A stretch of 64,000 nt of DNA from NCBI GenBank assembly GCA_964606895.1, contig CAZSHX010000003.1, forward strand, positions 11,921 to 75,920, read 5' to 3'. Position numbers and translations under genes: made by a program. The DNA comes from an uncultured Hyphomicrobiales bacterium (GTDB lineage Bacteria; Bacteroidota; Ignavibacteria; Kapaibacteriales; UBA2268). The first letter of the stretch is position 1. Each line of letters begins with the position of its first letter. Of this stretch, positions 4,235 to 62,376 are shown in pieces. The notes under the pieces were generated by a model, which made no database searches, was not told where the DNA came from, and worked only from the letters and a program-made list of their open reading frames with translations.

Positions 4235-5164
4235 ATGAATTACAAAATTTTAGTATCTGCAATTCTTTCGGCAATTTTCTTTTGCTTCTCTTCGCTGTAT
4301 TCGGCAGAGCCGCTGGTGAAATTCTATCTTCAGGATGGAAGCACAAAGCAATATAATCTCAGCGAGATTGACAGTTTGGGAGTTATTGACAAAAAGAATA
4401 ATTATGTGATGAGAATTCATTACGATGATACTCTTATCGCATATTACCCGACTGAAATAATCGGAAGCATCAATTTTGAAAAAGATTCTTTAAAAAGGAA
4501 GATGTTAAATGTTTACATTTTTAATTATCCTAAAAGTTATGAATTATTTTATATTGACAGCCTCATCTTTTACATTGACCAATGGCAACCCTTAACTATC
4601 GGCTCTCAGGTTTGGATGCTAAAGAATCTTAATGTTGACCACTACAGGAATGGAGATTCAATACCTAATATGAAATCTGATTCTGATTGGGTTAGTTGTG
4701 CAAATCCTCGAGTTGGTGCATTGTGCTTATATCAAAATTCTGATTCACTTGGTAAAATATATGGTAAGTTATACAATTGGTATGCTGTAGGTGACGCAAG
4801 AGAGTTAGCTCCTTCAGGTTGGCATGTACCAACGGATGCAGAGTGGAAAACACTTTCAAATTATCTTGGGAGTTATTATATTGCAGGAGGTAAAATGAAA
4901 GAAACCAGAACTATTCACTGGTATAAACCAAACAGCGGAGCAACTAACTCAAGCGGCTTTTCCGCTCTTCCAGGTGGCTTGCGTGGCTACGATAATGGCT
5001 GGTACTTACTTTATGAACTCAGCGGCATTTTCTGGACATCAACGGATACAAGTTATACAAATGCTTGGTATATGGGTTTGGCAAGCGATGATATAAATCT
5101 CGGCAGGTGGGATAAGGATAAAAGAAGCGGCTTTTCCGTTCGATGTGTGAAAGATGGGAAGTAA
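4235..5164 (+). CDS. Secreted protein with a C-terminal Fibrobacter-succinogenes-major-paralogous (FISUMP) domain
   Basis: Signal peptide present. The C-terminal ~170 aa show the FISUMP pattern (LYNWYAV…GWHVPT…EW…LGG..AGGKMKE…GATNSSGFSALPGG…WSST…GFSVRCVKD). The same domain recurs at 17487..18974. Confidence 0.65.
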   Translation: MNYKILVSAILSAIFFCFSSLYSAEPLVKFYLQDGSTKQYNLSEIDSLGVIDKKNNYVMRIHYDDTLIAYYPTEIIGSINFEKDSLKRKMLNVYIFNYPKSYELFYIDSLIFYIDQWQPLTIGSQVWMLKNLNVDHYRNGDSIPNMKSDSDWVSCANPRVGALCLYQNSDSLGKIYGKLYNWYAVGDARELAPSGWHVPTDAEWKTLSNYLGSYYIAGGKMKETRTIHWYKPNSGATNSSGFSALPGGLRGYDNGWYLLYELSGIFWTSTDTSYTNAWYMGLASDDINLGRWDKDKRSGFSVRCVKDGK

Positions 5165-5166
5165 TC

Positions 5167-5419
5167 TGAACTGTGATTTATATGATTTGTTTGATTAAGA
5201 TGAAGATTAAAGAAGGATGTCTTAATTACGAATTTTTTGGATGAAAGGATTACACTGATTATTCAAGAATTTCTTCTCCTGAATCCTCCTAATCCTCAAA
5301 TCCGTTTAATCCGCGATTCAGATATTTGAATTGCAACGACTTTTAAGTCGTGGGAAGATGTTGAATATATCTAAACTTTGATTTATATGATTTGTTTGAT
5401 TAAGATGATGATTAAAGAT
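5167..5419. repeat. ~48-bp near-perfect direct repeats (5167-5214 and 5372-5419) flanking a ~157-bp segment that carries a MITE-like element
   Basis: Direct comparison: ctgaactgtgatttatatgatttgtttgattaagatgaagattaaaga versus ctaaactttgatttatatgatttgtttgattaagatgatgattaaaga. Confidence 0.7.
5243..5334. repeat. MITE/REP-like palindromic intergenic element (family shared with 17372-17475 and 38652-38804)
   Basis: Shared modules: aaaggattNcacNgattNttcaagaat on one side and aatccgcgattcagatatttgaattg on the other. Confidence 0.5.
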
Positions 5420-5594: not shown

Positions 5595-5652
5595 GTTATT
5601 CTTAATCAACACCTAAACATCTTCCCAACTAAACAGCTAAGCACCTCAACAA

Positions 5653-6207
5653 CTAAACAATTATATCGGCGTATTTAGTCTCAAATCTCTCCTGAACCGG
5701 AGTGGGGGTGACATCTTTGCCGAAATTAAAAATATCGGGCTTGTGCTTTTTCTGAATTTTTTCCTGAACAGTCATCAAAGCTTTGATAACGGCTTCAGGT
5801 CTGGGAGGGCATCCCGCAACGTAAACATCAACAGGAAGAAATCTGTCAATGCCCTGAACTACGGGGTAGCTTCTGAACATCCCGCCGGTTGAGGCACAAA
5901 CTCCCATTGAAATTACCCATTTCGGGTCGGGCATCTGGTCGTAAATCTTGCGAACCACCCATGCCATTTTGTAAGTTACGGTTCCGGCAACGAGCAGTAA
6001 ATCTGATTGTCTGGGCGACATTCTGAATACTTCCGAGCCAAATCTGGATACATCAAACCTTGGCGAAGCAAAAGCCATCATTTCGATTGCACAGCATGAA
6101 ATTCCAAGGGGCATGGGCCAAACGGAATTTTTCTGTGCCCATTTAATCACTGCTTCTACTGATGTCGTAAGGAATCCATCCCTTGATAAAACCTGATCTA
6201 TTGCCAT
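5653..6207 (-). CDS. nuoB: NADH-quinone oxidoreductase subunit B (NuoB/NDH-1 20 kDa subunit)
   Basis: Conserved Fe-S cysteine motifs: [30 protein letters not shown]. Length 184 aa. Confidence 0.92.
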
Positions 6208-22552: not shown

Positions 22553-24619
<2,067 letters not shown>

Positions 24620-24699
24620 GAGTTGAGGTTTTTAGACGGTTAGGTGTTTAGGTGGTAAAGAGTCATCCTTGTGTGTCTGCGGAGCAGACGGAGGTAGAT

Positions 24700-25535
24700 A
24701 ATCTTTCCCAAATTGCATCTTTTATTATTTCCCGAAAAAGATGCAATCAATTTTCAGCTAAACGGTTGATATTATTTCAAATAACAAAATTTTAACCATT
24801 GCATCATTGGATGCAAAATGATGCAAAGATGCAATTTTTGGATGTTTTTTCAAAGAACAGATTTGTATGTTCCGTAGGAACAACCTGTTTGTAGAAACCC
24901 AAAACATTTTAAACATCAAGCTCCGTAGGAGCGGACAGTTGAAATTATGAATTTGAATAATTAGATCGCTCCTACGGAGTTTTAATATTATATGGTCTAC
25001 TTTTCTACAAACAGTTGCTCCGCTGGAGCAATTCTCACTTCATTTTTCCCAATTTGCATTGCATCATCAAAAAATATAATTTAAAAAATGTAATTATTTA
25101 ACAGCTAACCTGTTGATATTATTTCAAATAACGATATTTTTCTCGTTGCATCTTTGGGCTAAAAAAGATGCAAAGATGCAATTTTTGGATGTTTTTTCAA
25201 AGAACACATTTGTATGTTCCATAGGAACAACCTGTTTGTAGAAACCCAAAACATTTTAAACATCAAGCTCCGTAGGAGCGGACAGTTGAAATTATGAATT
25301 TGAATAATTAGATCGCTCCTACGGAGTTTTAATATTATATGGTCTACTTTTCTACAAACAGTTGCTCCGCTGGAGCAATTCTCACTTCATTTTTCCCAAT
25401 TTGCATTGCATCATCAAAAAATATAATTTAAAAAATGTAATTATTTAACAGCTAACCTGTTGATATTATTTCAAATAACGATATTTTTCTCGTTGCATCT
25501 TTGGGCTAAAAAAGATGCAAAGATGCAAATTCTTA
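24700..25535. repeat. Tandem array of a ~346-bp structured repeat: a partial leading unit, two ~99%-identical full units (24821-25167 and 25168-25513) and a trailing stub
   Basis: Direct sequence comparison. Each unit contains multiple palindromes (gttccgtaggaac; ctccgtaggagcg…cgctcctacggag; ttgctccgctggagcaa; ggaacaacctgtttgtagaaa pairing at long range with tttctacaaacagttgctcc), plus the TTGCATCTTT…AAAGATGCAA hairpin and the GTTGATATTATTTCAAATAAC box. Confidence 0.85.
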
Positions 25536-25718
25536 CAGCCTTCTCCAAGAATAGGATGGGGTAAGGTTGACTTACTTTCAATGTACGAAATCAAAAGCAA
25601 TTAACGAAGATAACGATTATTTATTGCTATAAAATTGGAGTAATAATTTACTTCTTATTACAAGAATCGGCAGGTGGAGTTCCTGCCGATTTGGTAAATG
25701 CTGATTTTATAAACTCAT

Positions 25719-33784: not shown

Positions 33785-33890
33785 CGAGCAATTTATTTCA
33801 AATATGATGGTTGGGGGAAAAGTTGGGAATTGTGATAATGCAAAGCAGAAGTTGCATCTTTTTTACCTAAAAGATGCAAGAGATGCAATG
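33785..33890. repeat. Degenerate single copy of the hairpin-plus-box repeat core
   Basis: aatttatttcaaatatgatgg followed ~40 bp later by ttgcatcttttttacctaaaagatgcaagagatgcaa. Confidence 0.5.
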
Positions 33891-37637: not shown

Positions 37638-38351
37638 CTAATAGCCTGTAGATAAAGACAAAAACTGAAAAACAAGCAAAAATTCCGATAATTTCAGAAA
37701 AACACGTTTTGTGAAAAAGAAATAAAATATGAGGCTGAAATTGTCTAATAATCGAATTTGAAAACGCCAAATGCAGTTGAGAATCCAAGATAAGAAGAAA
37801 TTTGAGTTGGCAAGGGACTGTTTAGGTGTTCCAATGCCGAATAACTTTCTCATAAGAAGAGAAAGGTTGTAGCTCGCCACAGCGATTCTATATCGCTTCA
37901 GTATGTTTTCGTTTTTGCTAAGAGTGGTTCTTTGCTGACCGCCTGAGTCAAGTACTTGAGCAAAACTTCGCTCAACCTGCGATCCGCGTAGTCCCAGAAG
38001 TGCCTTACCTTCCTTGCTTTTTACTTCGGCTTTTGCGAAACGCAGTGGTATTCTTTCTTCAATAGTAAGCTTTTCCAGATTACGATTGTAAATGAAGTCG
38101 GGAATTACTGTCATAACGTCCATATCATGAATTGCTTGAATCTCAGTCGCTTTAAAATATCCTTTGTCCGATGTAACTGTCTGAATCTGTAAAACAGTTG
38201 TAGGGTCTTCAGCTATGTCGTTAAGTCTGATCTGGGCATTAATAATACGTTCGGAAAGCTCGCTTGAATCGGCTTGATTACAGTGAAGCATGTTTACTTC
38301 TATTATTGCACCTGTGACAGGGGCAACATTAAGGTCAAATTTTGAGTTCAT
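37638..38351 (-). CDS. DDE transposase (IS4/IS5 type; short, possibly catalytic core only)
   Basis: DxGY motif (TSDKGYF) and R-x3-E-x6-K-like C1 region (RGSQVERSFAQV). The ORF runs into the terminal IR. Confidence 0.65.
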   Translation of the reverse strand: MNSKFDLNVAPVTGAIIEVNMLHCNQADSSELSERIINAQIRLNDIAEDPTTVLQIQTVTSDKGYFKATEIQAIHDMDVMTVIPDFIYNRNLEKLTIEERIPLRFAKAEVKSKEGKALLGLRGSQVERSFAQVLDSGGQQRTTLSKNENILKRYRIAVASYNLSLLMRKLFGIGTPKQSLANSNFFLSWILNCIWRFQIRLLDNFSLIFYFFFTKRVFLKLSEFLLVFQFLSLSTGY

Positions 38352-38491
38352 GAGTGGGAATCCACATTGATGTTTGTTTTGGTATCTTTTTCTTCTTAAT
38401 CATTATGATCTTCGATATTTGTTATATATTTTATACCATTAAGACTTAAATCGTGTTTATTGTTGTATTGATTAATCAACAGGCTCTTAAA
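37638..38491 (-). mobile_element. IS element, 854 bp, IS4/IS5-superfamily (IS1031-group-like size), copy 1
   Basis: 100% identical to 55188..56041. Imperfect terminal IRs TAATAGCCTGTAGAT / TAAGAGCCTGTTGAT. Both copies are flanked by TAA (TNA-type target duplication, or the element termini). Single transposase ORF. Confidence 0.75.
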
Positions 38492-38651
38492 CTCTTCAAC
38501 AATAAAGCAACTAAAACCTCAACTCTTTGAAATACATAATTCTTCTCTTCCGTACAGGACGGAACTTCTTGGGCAGTTTTTTTTTCTACCGAGCTTTTGT
38601 CACTACGTCACAATGAAAATTGTTGATTATCGAGGATTGAGCTTGGGAATG

Positions 38652-38804
38652 TCTGAATCGCAGATTATTTGGTTTAAAGGATTCCACGGATTTTCAAGAA
38701 TATATTGGAAAGATGTCCTACATGTGCCAGATGTAGGACATCTGATAAACATATCCTCTTAATCCCGAAATCCTTTTAATCAGTGATTCAGAAATTTGAA
38801 TTGG
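38652..38804. repeat. MITE-like element (ctgaatcgcagatt … aatcagtgattcagaa TIRs) containing a nested 12-bp-stem hairpin
   Basis: TIR similarity to 17372-17475. Internal hairpin gatgtcctacatgtgccagatgtaggacatc, also found at 43064. Confidence 0.5.
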
Positions 38805-38888
38805 TATTAAAAATTATTGATTATTTCAAAAAAAAAGTCCGGCACTTTTTCAAATGCACGACTTTTTAAGATTTATTTAAAAGAATAA

Positions 38889-43028: not shown

Positions 43029-43063
43029 CTTTTTATTGGATATCAGAGATTTTTTTTATAAGA

Positions 43064-43096
43064 TGCCCTACATCTGCCAGATGTAGGACATCTTTA
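43064..43096. repeat. REP-like hairpin (gatgccctacatctgccagatgtaggacatc) between convergent genes; probable terminator
   Basis: Near-identical to the hairpin at 38714-38746. Confidence 0.55.
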
Positions 43097-55187: not shown

Positions 55188-55901
55188 CTAATAGCCTGTA
55201 GATAAAGACAAAAACTGAAAAACAAGCAAAAATTCCGATAATTTCAGAAAAACACGTTTTGTGAAAAAGAAATAAAATATGAGGCTGAAATTGTCTAATA
55301 ATCGAATTTGAAAACGCCAAATGCAGTTGAGAATCCAAGATAAGAAGAAATTTGAGTTGGCAAGGGACTGTTTAGGTGTTCCAATGCCGAATAACTTTCT
55401 CATAAGAAGAGAAAGGTTGTAGCTCGCCACAGCGATTCTATATCGCTTCAGTATGTTTTCGTTTTTGCTAAGAGTGGTTCTTTGCTGACCGCCTGAGTCA
55501 AGTACTTGAGCAAAACTTCGCTCAACCTGCGATCCGCGTAGTCCCAGAAGTGCCTTACCTTCCTTGCTTTTTACTTCGGCTTTTGCGAAACGCAGTGGTA
55601 TTCTTTCTTCAATAGTAAGCTTTTCCAGATTACGATTGTAAATGAAGTCGGGAATTACTGTCATAACGTCCATATCATGAATTGCTTGAATCTCAGTCGC
55701 TTTAAAATATCCTTTGTCCGATGTAACTGTCTGAATCTGTAAAACAGTTGTAGGGTCTTCAGCTATGTCGTTAAGTCTGATCTGGGCATTAATAATACGT
55801 TCGGAAAGCTCGCTTGAATCGGCTTGATTACAGTGAAGCATGTTTACTTCTATTATTGCACCTGTGACAGGGGCAACATTAAGGTCAAATTTTGAGTTCA
55901 T
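55188..55901 (-). CDS. DDE transposase (identical to the one at 37638..38351)
   Basis: Identical 237-aa ORF. Confidence 0.65.
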   Translation of the reverse strand: MNSKFDLNVAPVTGAIIEVNMLHCNQADSSELSERIINAQIRLNDIAEDPTTVLQIQTVTSDKGYFKATEIQAIHDMDVMTVIPDFIYNRNLEKLTIEERIPLRFAKAEVKSKEGKALLGLRGSQVERSFAQVLDSGGQQRTTLSKNENILKRYRIAVASYNLSLLMRKLFGIGTPKQSLANSNFFLSWILNCIWRFQIRLLDNFSLIFYFFFTKRVFLKLSEFLLVFQFLSLSTGY

Positions 55902-56041
55902 GAGTGGGAATCCACATTGATGTTTGTTTTGGTATCTTTTTCTTCTTAATCATTATGATCTTCGATATTTGTTATATATTTTATACCATTAAGACTTAAA
56001 TCGTGTTTATTGTTGTATTGATTAATCAACAGGCTCTTAAT
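55188..56041 (-). mobile_element. IS element copy 2 (identical to 37638..38491, same orientation)
   Basis: 854/854 identity by direct comparison. Inserted 9 bp after the stop of the - strand gene ending at 56050. Confidence 0.75.
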
Positions 56042-57357: not shown

Positions 57358-57453
57358 TTACATATATATTTTTAAGATTTTAAAGACGCAATGAAATAAA
57401 TTTATTTGAAATAATAATATAAACATCAGAATCGTCAATGTATTTTTGCATTA

Positions 57454-58197: not shown

Positions 58198-58485
58198 TAT
58201 TGTATATCTTTCTTCTTTTTCCGTTCCGTTAGTTTTTAAAGTTGACTTCTAAACTATTCATTTTTTCAATACAATTCCCAAATTGCATCTTTTTGTTTTT
58301 TTTCAAAAAAGCTACAATGTCATTTCGATTCATAACTCATTCGGGTATTATTTTCATCGGGTTAGAACATCAGTTCCAATGACCTTTTTTAATTCCCTGC
58401 CATGACCAATCTTCTTCTTCATTAACAGAATTAGATATTGTTGAAAAAAAATATGTATTTTTGTACTTATTTTTTGAACTGAATT

Positions 58486-60800: not shown

Positions 60801-61184
60801 AGTAATGAAGATATACAAAGAAAAGGCTTGAAAAAATTCTCAAACATATTATCTACAATCTCCTGGCTGATAAAGCATGGTTGATACCTCCATTTCGTCA
60901 GCAGTTACTATCAGTTTGTGATGCTCCGGGTTCTATACCGCCATTGGACAGCACCGAACAACAACCACAGTTTCGGCTACAACGGCATGGAAAAGGACGA
61001 CAAAGTGATTGGGCTGGGGAAATTGATTCAGGCATAATCGGATTAAAATGATGAATCATGAAAAGAAGTTGAATATTACCTCTTTTCCATAGCAATAATT
61101 AATCATGCTTTTCGTTTATATTTTGTGAGTTCTCGTTCTTTGACAGTTTGTCAACCTCACCCCGACATTCATGGAGAAGAGGTA

Positions 61185-61600
61185 AAAATTGCATCTTTGC
61201 ATCTTTTTCAGCACAAAGATGCAATTGACAAAAAGTCGTTATTTGAAATAATATCAATAGGTTAGATAATAATTGCATTGCATGTTTTTTTGAAAAAAAA
61301 TAAAAGTGCAAAGATGCAATGAAGGAAATCCGATTTCGCGTAGCGATTGAATATAGAACGAACATTTGCCGTCGTATTTATATTTAACCCCTGACGGGGT
61401 TAAGGATTTTTTTGGGTTCTATGTGTTACAGATATTCATTCCCTACGGGAATCGGAAGAATGAAAAACAACCATAAATTGCATCTTTTTGCATTCAAAGA
61501 TGCAATGGCTCAAAACTCGTTATTTGAAATAATATCAATAGGTTATGCGGTTTACTTACTGCATTTTCTTAAGTAAAAAAAAGATGCAATTTGGGGAAAA
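61185..61600. repeat. Two diverged units (~290 bp apart, 61190 and 61480) of the hairpin-plus-box structured repeat family, inside a ~1.07-kb gene-free region
   Basis: ttgcatctttgcatctttttcagcacaaagatgcaattgacaaaaagtcgttatttgaaataatatcaataggttag and ttgcatctttttgcattcaaagatgcaatggctcaaaactcgttatttgaaataatatcaataggttatg. Intervening palindromes aacccctgacggggtt and attccctacgggaat. Confidence 0.8.
61385..61414 (+). terminator. Strong terminator-like hairpin inside the repeat region
   Basis: ttaacccctgacggggttaa followed by ggattttttt. Confidence 0.5.
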
Positions 61601-61869
61601 TGAAGAAAAAAGAAGTGGTTAGACGCGTGTTTAATCAAGATTTAAAAATCCAACGCTTATACGATTTTCAATTCTAAATTCACAATTTCTCCTCTTTACC
61701 CTCTCCCTCGTCCTTCAGCCCTTGTGCGATAATAAGTTGAGATGTTTAGTTTCTTAGGCGTTTAGATGTTGAATGAATAAATAAATCTCCCAAAATTGAT
61801 TTTAGAATCAGCCAATCTATTAATCCAAAAAAAAAATTTCCAAAAATAAATATTTTTTTGGAAATTTAA

Positions 61870-62376
61870 TTGTTTTTTCATAATTTAGTTGTATATGCAA
61901 CTGTTGTATTACCAACTAATATTATTATGGACGAATTTCAAAATATGGATAAATCAATAGGCTTCCATCTGGGGCATACTTTCAGAATGGTTAAGTCTGT
62001 TATGAACAAAGTATTTCAGGAAAATGGTTACAATATCACTTCAGACCAATGGCAGATTCTGATGTGTCTTTGGGGCAAGGACGGCAAAACTCAGCAGGAA
62101 GTAACTCAATTTGTAACAAAAGAAAAAGCTACAGTAACAAGATTGATTGACGGGCTTGAAAAAAGGAATCTTTTCATTCGCGTTCAGGACAAAACCGACC
62201 GCAGAAAAAATCTGCTCTATCTGACCGACGAAGCTAAACAATTGAAAGACAAGCTGATGCCTATCGCTACAAAAACTTTGGATATTGCCGTTAAAGGATT
62301 TGAGGAATCCGAAATCGAAATGCTTAAATCATTGCTTATTCGTGTTCAGGAAAATCTAAAAGTTTTTGAAAAATAA
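61870..62376 (+). CDS. MarR family transcriptional regulator
   Basis: Winged-HTH MarR pattern (LTSDQWQILMCLW…QQEVTQFVTKEKATVTRLIDGLEKRNLFIRVQDKTDRRKNLLYLTDE). The likely start is the Met at ~61927. Confidence 0.8.
   Translation: MFFHNLVVYATVVLPTNIIMDEFQNMDKSIGFHLGHTFRMVKSVMNKVFQENGYNITSDQWQILMCLWGKDGKTQQEVTQFVTKEKATVTRLIDGLEKRNLFIRVQDKTDRRKNLLYLTDEAKQLKDKLMPIATKTLDIAVKGFEESEIEMLKSLLIRVQENLKVFEK

Follow-up and report, generated by a model that had tools for sequence, protein, structure and literature searches.

What is the short repeat that recurs between genes in a 64,000-nucleotide stretch of contig CAZSHX010000003.1? This stretch, here called the window, comes from one genome of an uncultured bacterium and defines the scope of our analysis. 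An earlier note, made from its letters alone, described a two-module core and proposed either an array of protein sites or a mobile repeat. We found five complete units with one common layout, built from nested palindromes of the octamer AGATGCAA, and two decayed fragments. The units are non-coding and about 120-137 bp long. With roughly even confidence, our analysis assigns them to a lineage-specific mosaic intergenic repeat family that would work like the BIME-1 (RIB) elements of E. coli or the Correia elements of Neisseria.

Counted on both strands, AGATGCAA occurs 24 times in the window. The expectation from 100 shuffles is 3.71 +/- 1.81, and none of the shuffles reached 24. Twenty of the copies lie in four intergenic loci, and the other four lie inside open reading frames (ORFs). 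A 19-mer from the second module, which we call box B, has five exact copies (TTATTTGAAATAATATCAA) versus 0.34 expected, even when three mismatches are allowed. The earlier note had considered that the motif might be a chance-level feature without fixed spacing. Instead, the octamer stands at 24 copies versus 3.7, and the gap between the first module (hairpin A) and box B is exactly 13 nt in all five units, which is tighter than the 10-14 bp that the note had given.

A search profile built from the five units recovered them at E = 1e-35 to 1e-45. Every copy is intergenic, as had been claimed, and the units fill the window's two longest stretches without genes, of 1099 and 1069 bp. The copies, including partial ones, are as follows.

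24707-24837, minus strand: unit U1, with hairpin A at 24799-24826, box B at 24759-24785, an intact hairpin C at 24712-24747 and a C box at 24707-24719 (profile E = 3e-45).

25048-25184, minus strand: unit U2, a tandem duplicate of U3, with hairpin A at 25146-25173, box B at 25106-25132 and a C box at 25048-25060 (E = 1e-44).

25395-25531, minus strand: unit U3, with hairpin A at 25493-25520, box B at 25453-25479, a C box at 25395-25407 and the outer arm AATTTGCATC (E = 2e-43).

33793-33889, minus strand: U6, a degenerate mosaic copy with an intact hairpin A at 33852-33879, a B-like box (TTATTTCAAATAT) about 45 nt out of register and, between these two, an inverted piece resembling the flank of C (TTGGGAATTGTGAT); the profile matches the A part only (E = 5e-4).

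57402-57414, strand not assigned: a lone exact copy of the box B palindrome, TTATTTGAAATAA (E = 0.16).

58272-58340, minus strand: fragment U7, with the C hairpin and C box (AAAAAGATGCAATTTGGGAA) and a possible decayed box B (E = 0.09).

61186-61321, plus strand: unit U4, with hairpin A at 61197-61224, box B at 61238-61264 and C at 61302-61321; its terminal inverted repeat, TTGCATCTTTGCAYCTTTT, is 18 nt long with one mismatch (T/C, position 14), and its DNA fold has z = -5.7.

61475-61595, plus strand: unit U5, with hairpin A at 61478-61505, box B at 61519-61545 and a C box at 61583-61595; its terminal inverted repeat, AAATTGCATCTTTTT/AAAAAGATGCAATTT, is perfect over 15 nt, with 88 nt between the arms.

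This catalogue keeps much of what the earlier note had described and redraws the rest. Both modules of its core of about 90 bp are real, but the conserved unit is longer and includes hairpin C and an outer repeat. The degenerate copy near 33.8 kb stands, with hairpin A intact. The half-site near 58.3 kb is also present, although we now define it as a fragment made of the C hairpin and C box. U7 lies upstream of a histidine-kinase gene, in the opposite orientation. The copy at about 24705-24790, which had been thought to be rearranged, is in fact canonical: what had been taken for its first module (24712-24747) is hairpin C. The copies at 25100-25190 and 25446-25530 are likewise real, but they are not independent, because both are part of a 347-bp tandem repeat (24755-25528; 2.2 copies, 96% matches).

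With all copies aligned in one orientation, a unit consists of a left octamer (AAATTGCATCT), hairpin A, 13 nt, box B, about 10 nt and hairpin C (ATTGCATnTTTTT ... AAAGATGCAAT). The unit terminates in TTGGG(G)AAAATGAAG, and its end motif is GATGCAAT(TTGGGGAAAATGAAG). An outer inverted repeat of 13-18 nt, AAATTGCATC...GATGCAATTT, closes the unit; it is formed by the left octamer together with C's right arm. The AGATGCAA palindromes are thus nested, with hairpin A located just inside the left end of the outer repeat. DNA folds of the individual units (z = -2.1 to -5.7) recover the outer stem and the inner hairpin A. A further motif, GGGAAAAATGAAG, recurs at the right edge of the unit.

Hairpin A, TTGCATC[T/A]TT-N8-AA[A/T]GATGCAA, is 28 nt long; in 6/6 copies, its arms measure 10 bp and its loop 8 nt. 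We counted conservation in hairpin A and box B over seven unit sequences, and assessed covariation on hairpin A, since indels make the alignment of the outer stem and hairpin C unreliable. Hairpin A is paired in all 70 cells (seven sequences by ten pairs), and nine of the ten pairs are invariant in sequence. The tenth shows a compensatory double change in U1, from T-A to A-T (CATT/AATG; variant TTGCATCATT/AATGATGCAA). Therefore, both the sequence and the pairing are kept. This pattern suggests that what is kept is a site for a protein, which may bind the hairpin form, rather than a generic structure. The protein-site array proposed earlier is compatible with the BIME-like reading and is probably a part of how the element works; it is the sequence that is conserved and not the pairing alone.

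Box B, GTTATTTGAAATAATATCAA-NNNN-TTA, is AT-rich and contains both a 6-1-6 palindrome (TTATTT-G-AAATAA) and a bend motif of the IHF type (TATCAA-N4-TTA). All 23 of its specified positions are invariant, whereas all four N positions vary (CAGG, TAGG, CCGT, CAAG). TATCAA-N4-TTA, which follows an AT-rich tract, agrees perfectly with WATCAANNNNTTR, the IHF consensus of E. coli, in 5/5 units. All five units present hairpin A, then about 60-80 nt containing WATCAANNNNTTR, then hairpin C; the IHF element of this layout is a sequence match only. Over the whole window, WATCAANNNNTTR is not in excess (11 found versus 10.8 expected), and five of the 11 matches are those in the units.

The five units belong to two arrays. 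Array 1 (minus strand, from 25656 down to 25038) can be aligned with array 2 (61063-61605) over about 600 columns, and both have the order leader, unit, variable hairpin-rich stretch, second unit. The two large loci are thus colinear paralogues. The parts outside the units are the following.

25532-25665, minus strand: leader L1, about 125-134 nt, directly upstream of the first unit in array 1 and after the terminator hairpin of a BNR/type IX secretion system (T9SS) gene.

25185-25394, minus strand: variable stretch (“cargo”) from U3 to U2, with hairpins TTGCTCC-AGC-GGAGCAA and GTTCC-TAT-GGAAC and a 13-nt long-range inverted repeat around a 16-nt inverted repeat.

61050-61185, plus strand: leader L2, upstream of the first unit in array 2.

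61322-61474, plus strand: variable stretch from U4 to U5, with hairpins TCGC-GTA-GCGA and TTCCC-TAC-GGGAA and a terminator-like site at 61383-61414.

The leaders are homologous (local alignment z = 17.5 over about 125 nt). Between the arrays, the variable stretches have no significant sequence in common. The 347-nt repeat unit, taken as the near-identical tandem copy with U2 and its cargo (24851-25197), folds at -95.7 kcal/mol, much more stably than shuffled sequences (z = -6.6). Some hairpins of the variable stretches occur at corresponding places with different sequences. A short hairpin follows the C box after about 15-27 nt in each case: GTCTGC/GCAGAC in U1, TTGCTCC/GGAGCAA in U2 and U3, TCGC/GCGA in U4 and TTAGAC/GTTTAA in U5. 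The hairpin and T-run at 61383-61414 align with GCTCC-TAC-GGAGC and T-rich sequence in array 1, and the last hairpin before the next unit is GTTCC-TAT-GGAAC in array 1 and TTCCC-TAC-GGGAA in array 2.

Such an arrangement raises the main rival explanation, namely that the arrays are tandem small-RNA (sRNA) or regulatory transcription units, which we regard as possible but doubtful. The inverted octamers would then be an operator or enhancer for a dimeric regulator, box B would be a site for an architectural protein, and a short transcript would run from near GGGAAAAATGAAG through the 5' hairpin to the terminator. In a variant of this idea, the unit read on the opposite strand is the RNA, and hairpin A with its T-run is the terminator. 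The differing hairpins at a similar distance past the C box suit this explanation, as do the canonical terminator that closes the stretch after U4, with its aligned counterpart and T-run in array 1, the recurrence of GGGAAAAATGAAG at the right edge of the unit and the T-runs that follow hairpin A on the opposite strand. The layout of conserved module, variable body and tandem arrangement also resembles that of tandem sRNA gene families. In addition, the lone palindrome TTATTTGAAATAA stands at about -45 of a promoter-like box (57402-57441): it lies about 27 nt upstream of a TAnnTTTG box that precedes an esterase gene, and represents either what is left of a unit or an operator in its own right.

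However, the units contain no conserved match to a sigma-70, Bacteroidetes-type or sigma-54 promoter. For the Bacteroidetes type, we used the criterion of a -7 box, TAnnTTTG, with TTTG about 19-21 nt upstream. This box precedes many genes of the window in the correct orientation, but none of the 20 intergenic boxes in the window is inside a unit. Sigma-70-like matches occur at chance frequency and at positions that are not conserved between units, and the sigma-54-like GG-N10-GC, read directly, is present in U5 only. Moreover, the putative RNA bodies share no sequence, which is unusual for sRNA paralogues, and a unit serves as the upstream region of 0/43 genes in the window. Rfam 15 gave no match at gathering thresholds, and permissive thresholds gave only matches at chance level (E up to 5).

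Other assemblies show how the arrays differ between strains. The organism is also present in the ENA assemblies ERZ4201038 and ERZ4223250 and in the Logan run SRR12676970. In these, U4, U5 and U6 are identical to the window, U6 in three assemblies. In a second strain, L133, the flanking genes are identical, and 6.1 kb agree with the window except for one patch of about 130 nt that is about 18% diverged (seen on comparing L133 3524-4390 with 24690-25554 of the window). The patch begins inside the N4 of box B, is identical in both tandem copies and in places resembles U4 more than the allele of the window itself. It alters the loop of the hairpin TTGCTCC-NNN-GGAGCAA and retains the stem. The patch fits an exchange of sequence among copies followed by homogenization (concerted evolution), or else an assembly collapse.

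The same strain bears on a very improbable explanation, that the units are remnants of small protein-coding loci or of type I toxin-antitoxin-like loci, in which long direct repeats encode a short peptide and an antisense RNA. Tandem repeats of about 290-350 bp at one locus, with a copy elsewhere and highly structured DNA, would be in keeping with such loci. There are also short ORFs that begin at a conserved ATGAAG and have 22 and 25 codons (77-95 in L133), and an ORF on the opposite strand that runs through box B, starts with the hydrophobic MQLLSNLLILFQIT... and is intact in U4 and L133. However, the ATGAAG ORF has only 2 codons in U2 and U3 (stop at codon 3) and is absent in U1, and 1-nt indels shift the frames between strains. 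In U1, U2, U3 and U5, the opposite-strand ORF is interrupted, and most of the differences in it are non-synonymous. Thus, no small ORF on either strand is conserved among the units.

We return to the mosaic-repeat reading. Our data show the anatomy of the units, how they are conserved, that they lack coding or promoter signals, that they are restricted to one lineage and that strains exchange them in patches; the proteins, the mobility and any effect on neighbouring genes are what we infer. A sequence-specific protein might recognize the octamer palindromes, probably as extruded or single-stranded hairpins, and an HU/IHF-type architectural protein might bend box B, so that the two ends of a unit would be brought together. 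The units and the fast-evolving leader and spacer would spread by tandem duplication, by gene conversion between copies and by occasional moves to new intergenic sites. Where transcribed, the units would form long stem-loops at gene ends. The earlier proposal of a mobile, REP/BIME-like role is best supported in its BIME-like half, given the palindromes around a conserved linker, the tandem amplification, the extragenic location, the decayed fragments elsewhere and the lack of copies in the searched DNA of relatives. The REP half fails: the defining GTAG/CGTC tag is absent from the flanks of hairpin A on both strands (AAAAA/TTGCATCT and CTCG, CAAT or CCAT, on either strand), and therefore we do not consider the repeat a member of the REP family.

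Several observations weigh against the mosaic-repeat reading. Neither a target-site duplication nor an empty site could be demonstrated, and no direct repeat flanks any unit. In the 64 kb we saw only about seven copies at four loci, so that high copy number and dispersal are conjectural. The window contains no transposase or RAYT gene with matching ends. The WATCAANNNNTTR match in box B is suggestive rather than proof, because a 150-nt consensus would contain one by chance with a probability of about 0.025; the IHF consensus is that of E. coli, and may not be that of the host phylum. The hairpins of the variable stretches hold their position while their sequence changes, and one of them is a canonical terminator (61383-61414), which looks more like a selected transcription unit than like junk. 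Finally, the two big loci could go back to a single old segmental duplication, in which selection and not mobility has kept the units similar.

The question of mobility also leads to the classical MITE (miniature inverted-repeat transposable element), a deletion derivative of an insertion sequence that would be moved in trans by a DDE transposase binding the tandem octamers in the terminal repeats. We consider this quite unlikely. The 13-18-nt terminal inverted repeats, the length of about 120-137 bp, the AT-richness, the lack of coding capacity and the fragments at unrelated loci are all as expected of a MITE, and the genome carries DNA transposons that were probably active recently, in the form of two identical IS1182-like elements. 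Yet the flanks, as read, show no target-site duplication around any unit, homology runs past the inverted repeats into the leader and flanks, and the units are not scattered as single insertions but form head-to-tail arrays. The window's only transposase-like element is the IS1182-like one, and its ends (TAAnAGCCTGTnGAT) are unrelated to those of the units. In the window, no parent insertion sequence with AAATTGCATCTTT-type ends was found. Because of the missing target duplication, the homology beyond the repeats and the unrelated ends, the units cannot be filed as a classical MITE.

The IS1182-like element itself is 853 bp long and occurs in two 100% identical copies (37638-38490 and 55188-56040). 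It has imperfect terminal inverted repeats, TTAAGAGCCTGTTGAT / CTAATAGCCTGTAGAT, and an ORF of 237 aa, which at its C-terminus matches the last part of IS1182-family transposases (NCBIfam E = 1.2e-7, positions 425-487 in a model of 488). The element is probably an internally deleted insertion-sequence derivative that was recently active.

A further alternative, which we hold unlikely, is that the arrays, with their leader and repeated combination of unit and hairpin-bounded variable body, represent something of a new kind. They might be a previously undescribed type of regulated non-coding locus in Kapabacteria/Ignavibacteriota, or a mobile element of the single-stranded DNA kind that works by hairpin recognition, contains a built-in bend site and is of a type so far unlinked to any transposase family. 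In the regulated-locus version, the unit would be an enhancer-like module, made of octamer palindromes and an architectural-protein site, that drives short structured RNAs whose bodies diverge while the 5' hairpin and terminator are kept.

Where else does the repeat occur? The window is ordinary chromosome of an uncultured member of the Fibrobacterota-Chlorobiota-Bacteroidota (FCB) group. Its genes include T9SS sorting domains, a PorX-like regulator and the housekeeping genes for LigA, PGK, RuvA and Lnt, and the best matches of PGK and LigA that carry a taxon are metagenome-assembled genomes of Kapabacteria/Ignavibacteriota (59-71% identity). The closest relatives have 82% identity in PGK and 69% in LigA. 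No relative of the AGATGCAA repeat family was found in the public collections we scanned. The pattern of hairpin A plus box B gave 43 single matches over 185,579 GTDB representative genomes, all due to chance, and none in metagenome contigs. Viral contigs, plasmids and phages yielded no copy. A scan with the hairpin A pattern gave 85 hairpins, all unrelated. Two look-alikes of hairpin A were rejected: L070, which by its sequence we take to be eukaryote- or giant-virus-like, and L061/L114, which carries telomere-like TTTAGGG repeats.

In a profile search of 148 loci, full units were present only in contigs of the source organism. The earlier note had suggested looking for the same elements at other loci of related genomes, but our profile search found no unit in about 45 kb from three related organisms. 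The relatives identified through MarR (69% and 47%), PGK (82%) and LigA (69%) are without units. They cannot be used as empty sites, because only the LigA relative retains the local gene order and its contig stops 91 nt past ligA.

Within the organism, the contigs of short-read assemblies break or are mis-joined at units: the end of L148 (window 33892), the start of L003 (window 61545) and L132 at 2490-2591. These points fall inside the flank of hairpin A, where box B ends, and in the tandem array; a Logan contig stops in a unit, and one ENA contig mis-assembles the array. The repeats therefore fragment assemblies.

We also tested the units for other identities, which were rejected. The iterons to which the earlier note likened the octamers are a superficial resemblance: the motif is 8 nt long, is mostly inverted and nested, and occurs at four or more chromosomal loci, with no nearby rep gene or origin features, no rep-like domain in 43 scanned ORFs and no skew switch. 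Integron attC sites differ from the units, whose ends are AAATTGCATC/GATGCAATTT and not RYYYAAC...GTTRRRY, and the window has no integrase domain. Diversity-generating retroelements and retrons were dismissed, as we saw no adenine-specific differences and no reverse transcriptase in the window. Box B, as read from the sequence, has one arm similar to a XerC/D dif-like site and lacks the second. A DNA-uptake sequence does not fit, since AGATGCAA is clustered and not dispersed.

The MarR protein encoded downstream of array 2 was rejected as the protein that binds the units. MarR has an operator of its own, another palindrome (GTTGTATATGCAAC-like), which is also conserved upstream of MarR relatives that have no units. 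In the window, this GTTGTATATGCAAC / GTTGCGTATGCAAC-type palindrome occupies 61882-61900, immediately upstream of the MarR gene or at its start; two distant relatives have it too, at about 120-150 in L141/L142 and about 9960-9985 in L140. It is likely to be an auto-operator of MarR. The call of the 168-aa MarR ORF probably starts too early, because its relatives have 144-149 aa.

Some additional features lie near the units or elsewhere between genes. Just upstream of array 2 is a short ORF (60921-61037; MLRVLYRHWTAPNNNHSFGYNGMEKDDKVIGLGKLIQA) with no profile match. Its FGYNGMEKDD reminds us of the RHS core-domain motif Y-x-F-x-G-K-E-x-D, and we presume that it may be a pseudogene fragment. A 65-nt direct repeat, 89% identical, is located in an intergenic region at 5151-5213 and 5355-5418. 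GATT-rich pieces (…aatcctcaaatccgtttaatccgcgattcagatatttgaattg…) occur in two intergenic regions (5278-5330 and 38650-38805), in one case as an inverted pair. Two intergenic regions (38709-38749 and 43055-43095) have in common a palindromic repeat of 41 nt (…gatgtcctacatgtgccagatgtaggacatc…), 90-94% identical, that may belong to a family of terminator-type hairpins. Low-complexity motifs of the CCTAAACA / ACCTCAAC type are found just downstream of genes at 5608-5659, 24618-24660, 38500-38530 and 61735-61775, and the 14-mer AAACCTCAACTCTT is exact at 24618 and 38514, although two matches alone are not significant.

Much work has been done on small palindromic repeats between genes in Proteobacteria and in a few Firmicutes. 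To our knowledge, such repeats have hardly been described in the FCB group. If the mosaic-repeat reading is true, the units would be a second, independent case of two palindromes placed around an IHF-type bend site, suggesting a convergent solution for hairpin-based DNA elements. If instead the arrays encode sRNAs or regulatory units, this uncultured lineage would have its first candidates for sRNA arrays. In practice, the repeats disrupt short-read assemblies and can be used as strain markers.

The units share properties with several known systems. Plasmid and phage iterons likewise have a short motif several times within about 100 bp beside AT-rich DNA, but iterons are repeated directly, measure about 17-22 bp and belong to a single origin, where they adjoin a rep gene, DnaA boxes or an AT-rich unwinding element. 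The combination of inverted repeats, an IHF-type site and a downstream element about 85-95 bp away recalls the layout of sigma-54 promoters, a likeness of layout only; the -24/-12 GG-N10-GC is in U5 only, and there is no adjacent activator gene. Like MITEs of the Correia, ERIC and RUP type, the units have terminal inverted repeats, are shorter than about 200 bp, do not encode proteins and are AT-rich.

In REP sequences, the palindrome carries at its foot a conserved tetranucleotide, GTAG or CGTC (PMC3333891; PMC3733652). REP and BIME elements also number more than 100 per genome and go with a RAYT gene. The 28-nt hairpin A falls within the 20-40 nt of the imperfect, hairpin-forming palindromes of REP and BIME elements. 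As with REPINs and REPs that are mobilized by RAYT (TnpA-REP) Y1 transposases, the palindromes occur singly, in inverted doublets and in clusters, show compensatory pairing and are restricted to one lineage. However, the tetranucleotide that defines REPINs and REPs is absent from the units.

Correia elements of Neisseria (CREE/NEMIS) have an internal IHF site (PMC2229807; PMC2649163). Like the units, they are non-coding and intergenic, measure about 105-155 bp and have terminal inverted repeats, and their transcripts fold into long hairpins (PMC2229807; PMC2649163). By contrast, Correia elements have 26-bp inverted repeats with TA ends, duplicate TA and are present as hundreds of dispersed single copies, whereas the units show no duplication, are arranged head-to-tail, extend their homology into the leader and have no sequence similarity to Correia elements.

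The units also resemble the BIME-1 (RIB/RIP) elements of E. coli. What defines BIME-1 is the conserved L linker, which contains an IHF site and separates two REP palindromes (PMC3333891), and BIMEs are extragenic, form mosaics with other motifs, undergo tandem amplification, vary locally between strains and lack a target-site duplication (PMC3333891). The units likewise have short palindromes around a well-conserved linker that matches WATCAANNNNTTR, at the level of sequence. They are extragenic, often between convergent genes, and they too are mosaic, tandemly amplified and locally variable between strains, and they show no target-site duplication. In contrast to BIME-1, they carry no GTAG/CGTC tag, and their stems are AT-rich and not G+C-rich. 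Their palindromes are nested, with an outer stem closing the unit, rather than side by side, their left arm is a tandem octamer, and they come from a different phylum, within the FCB group.

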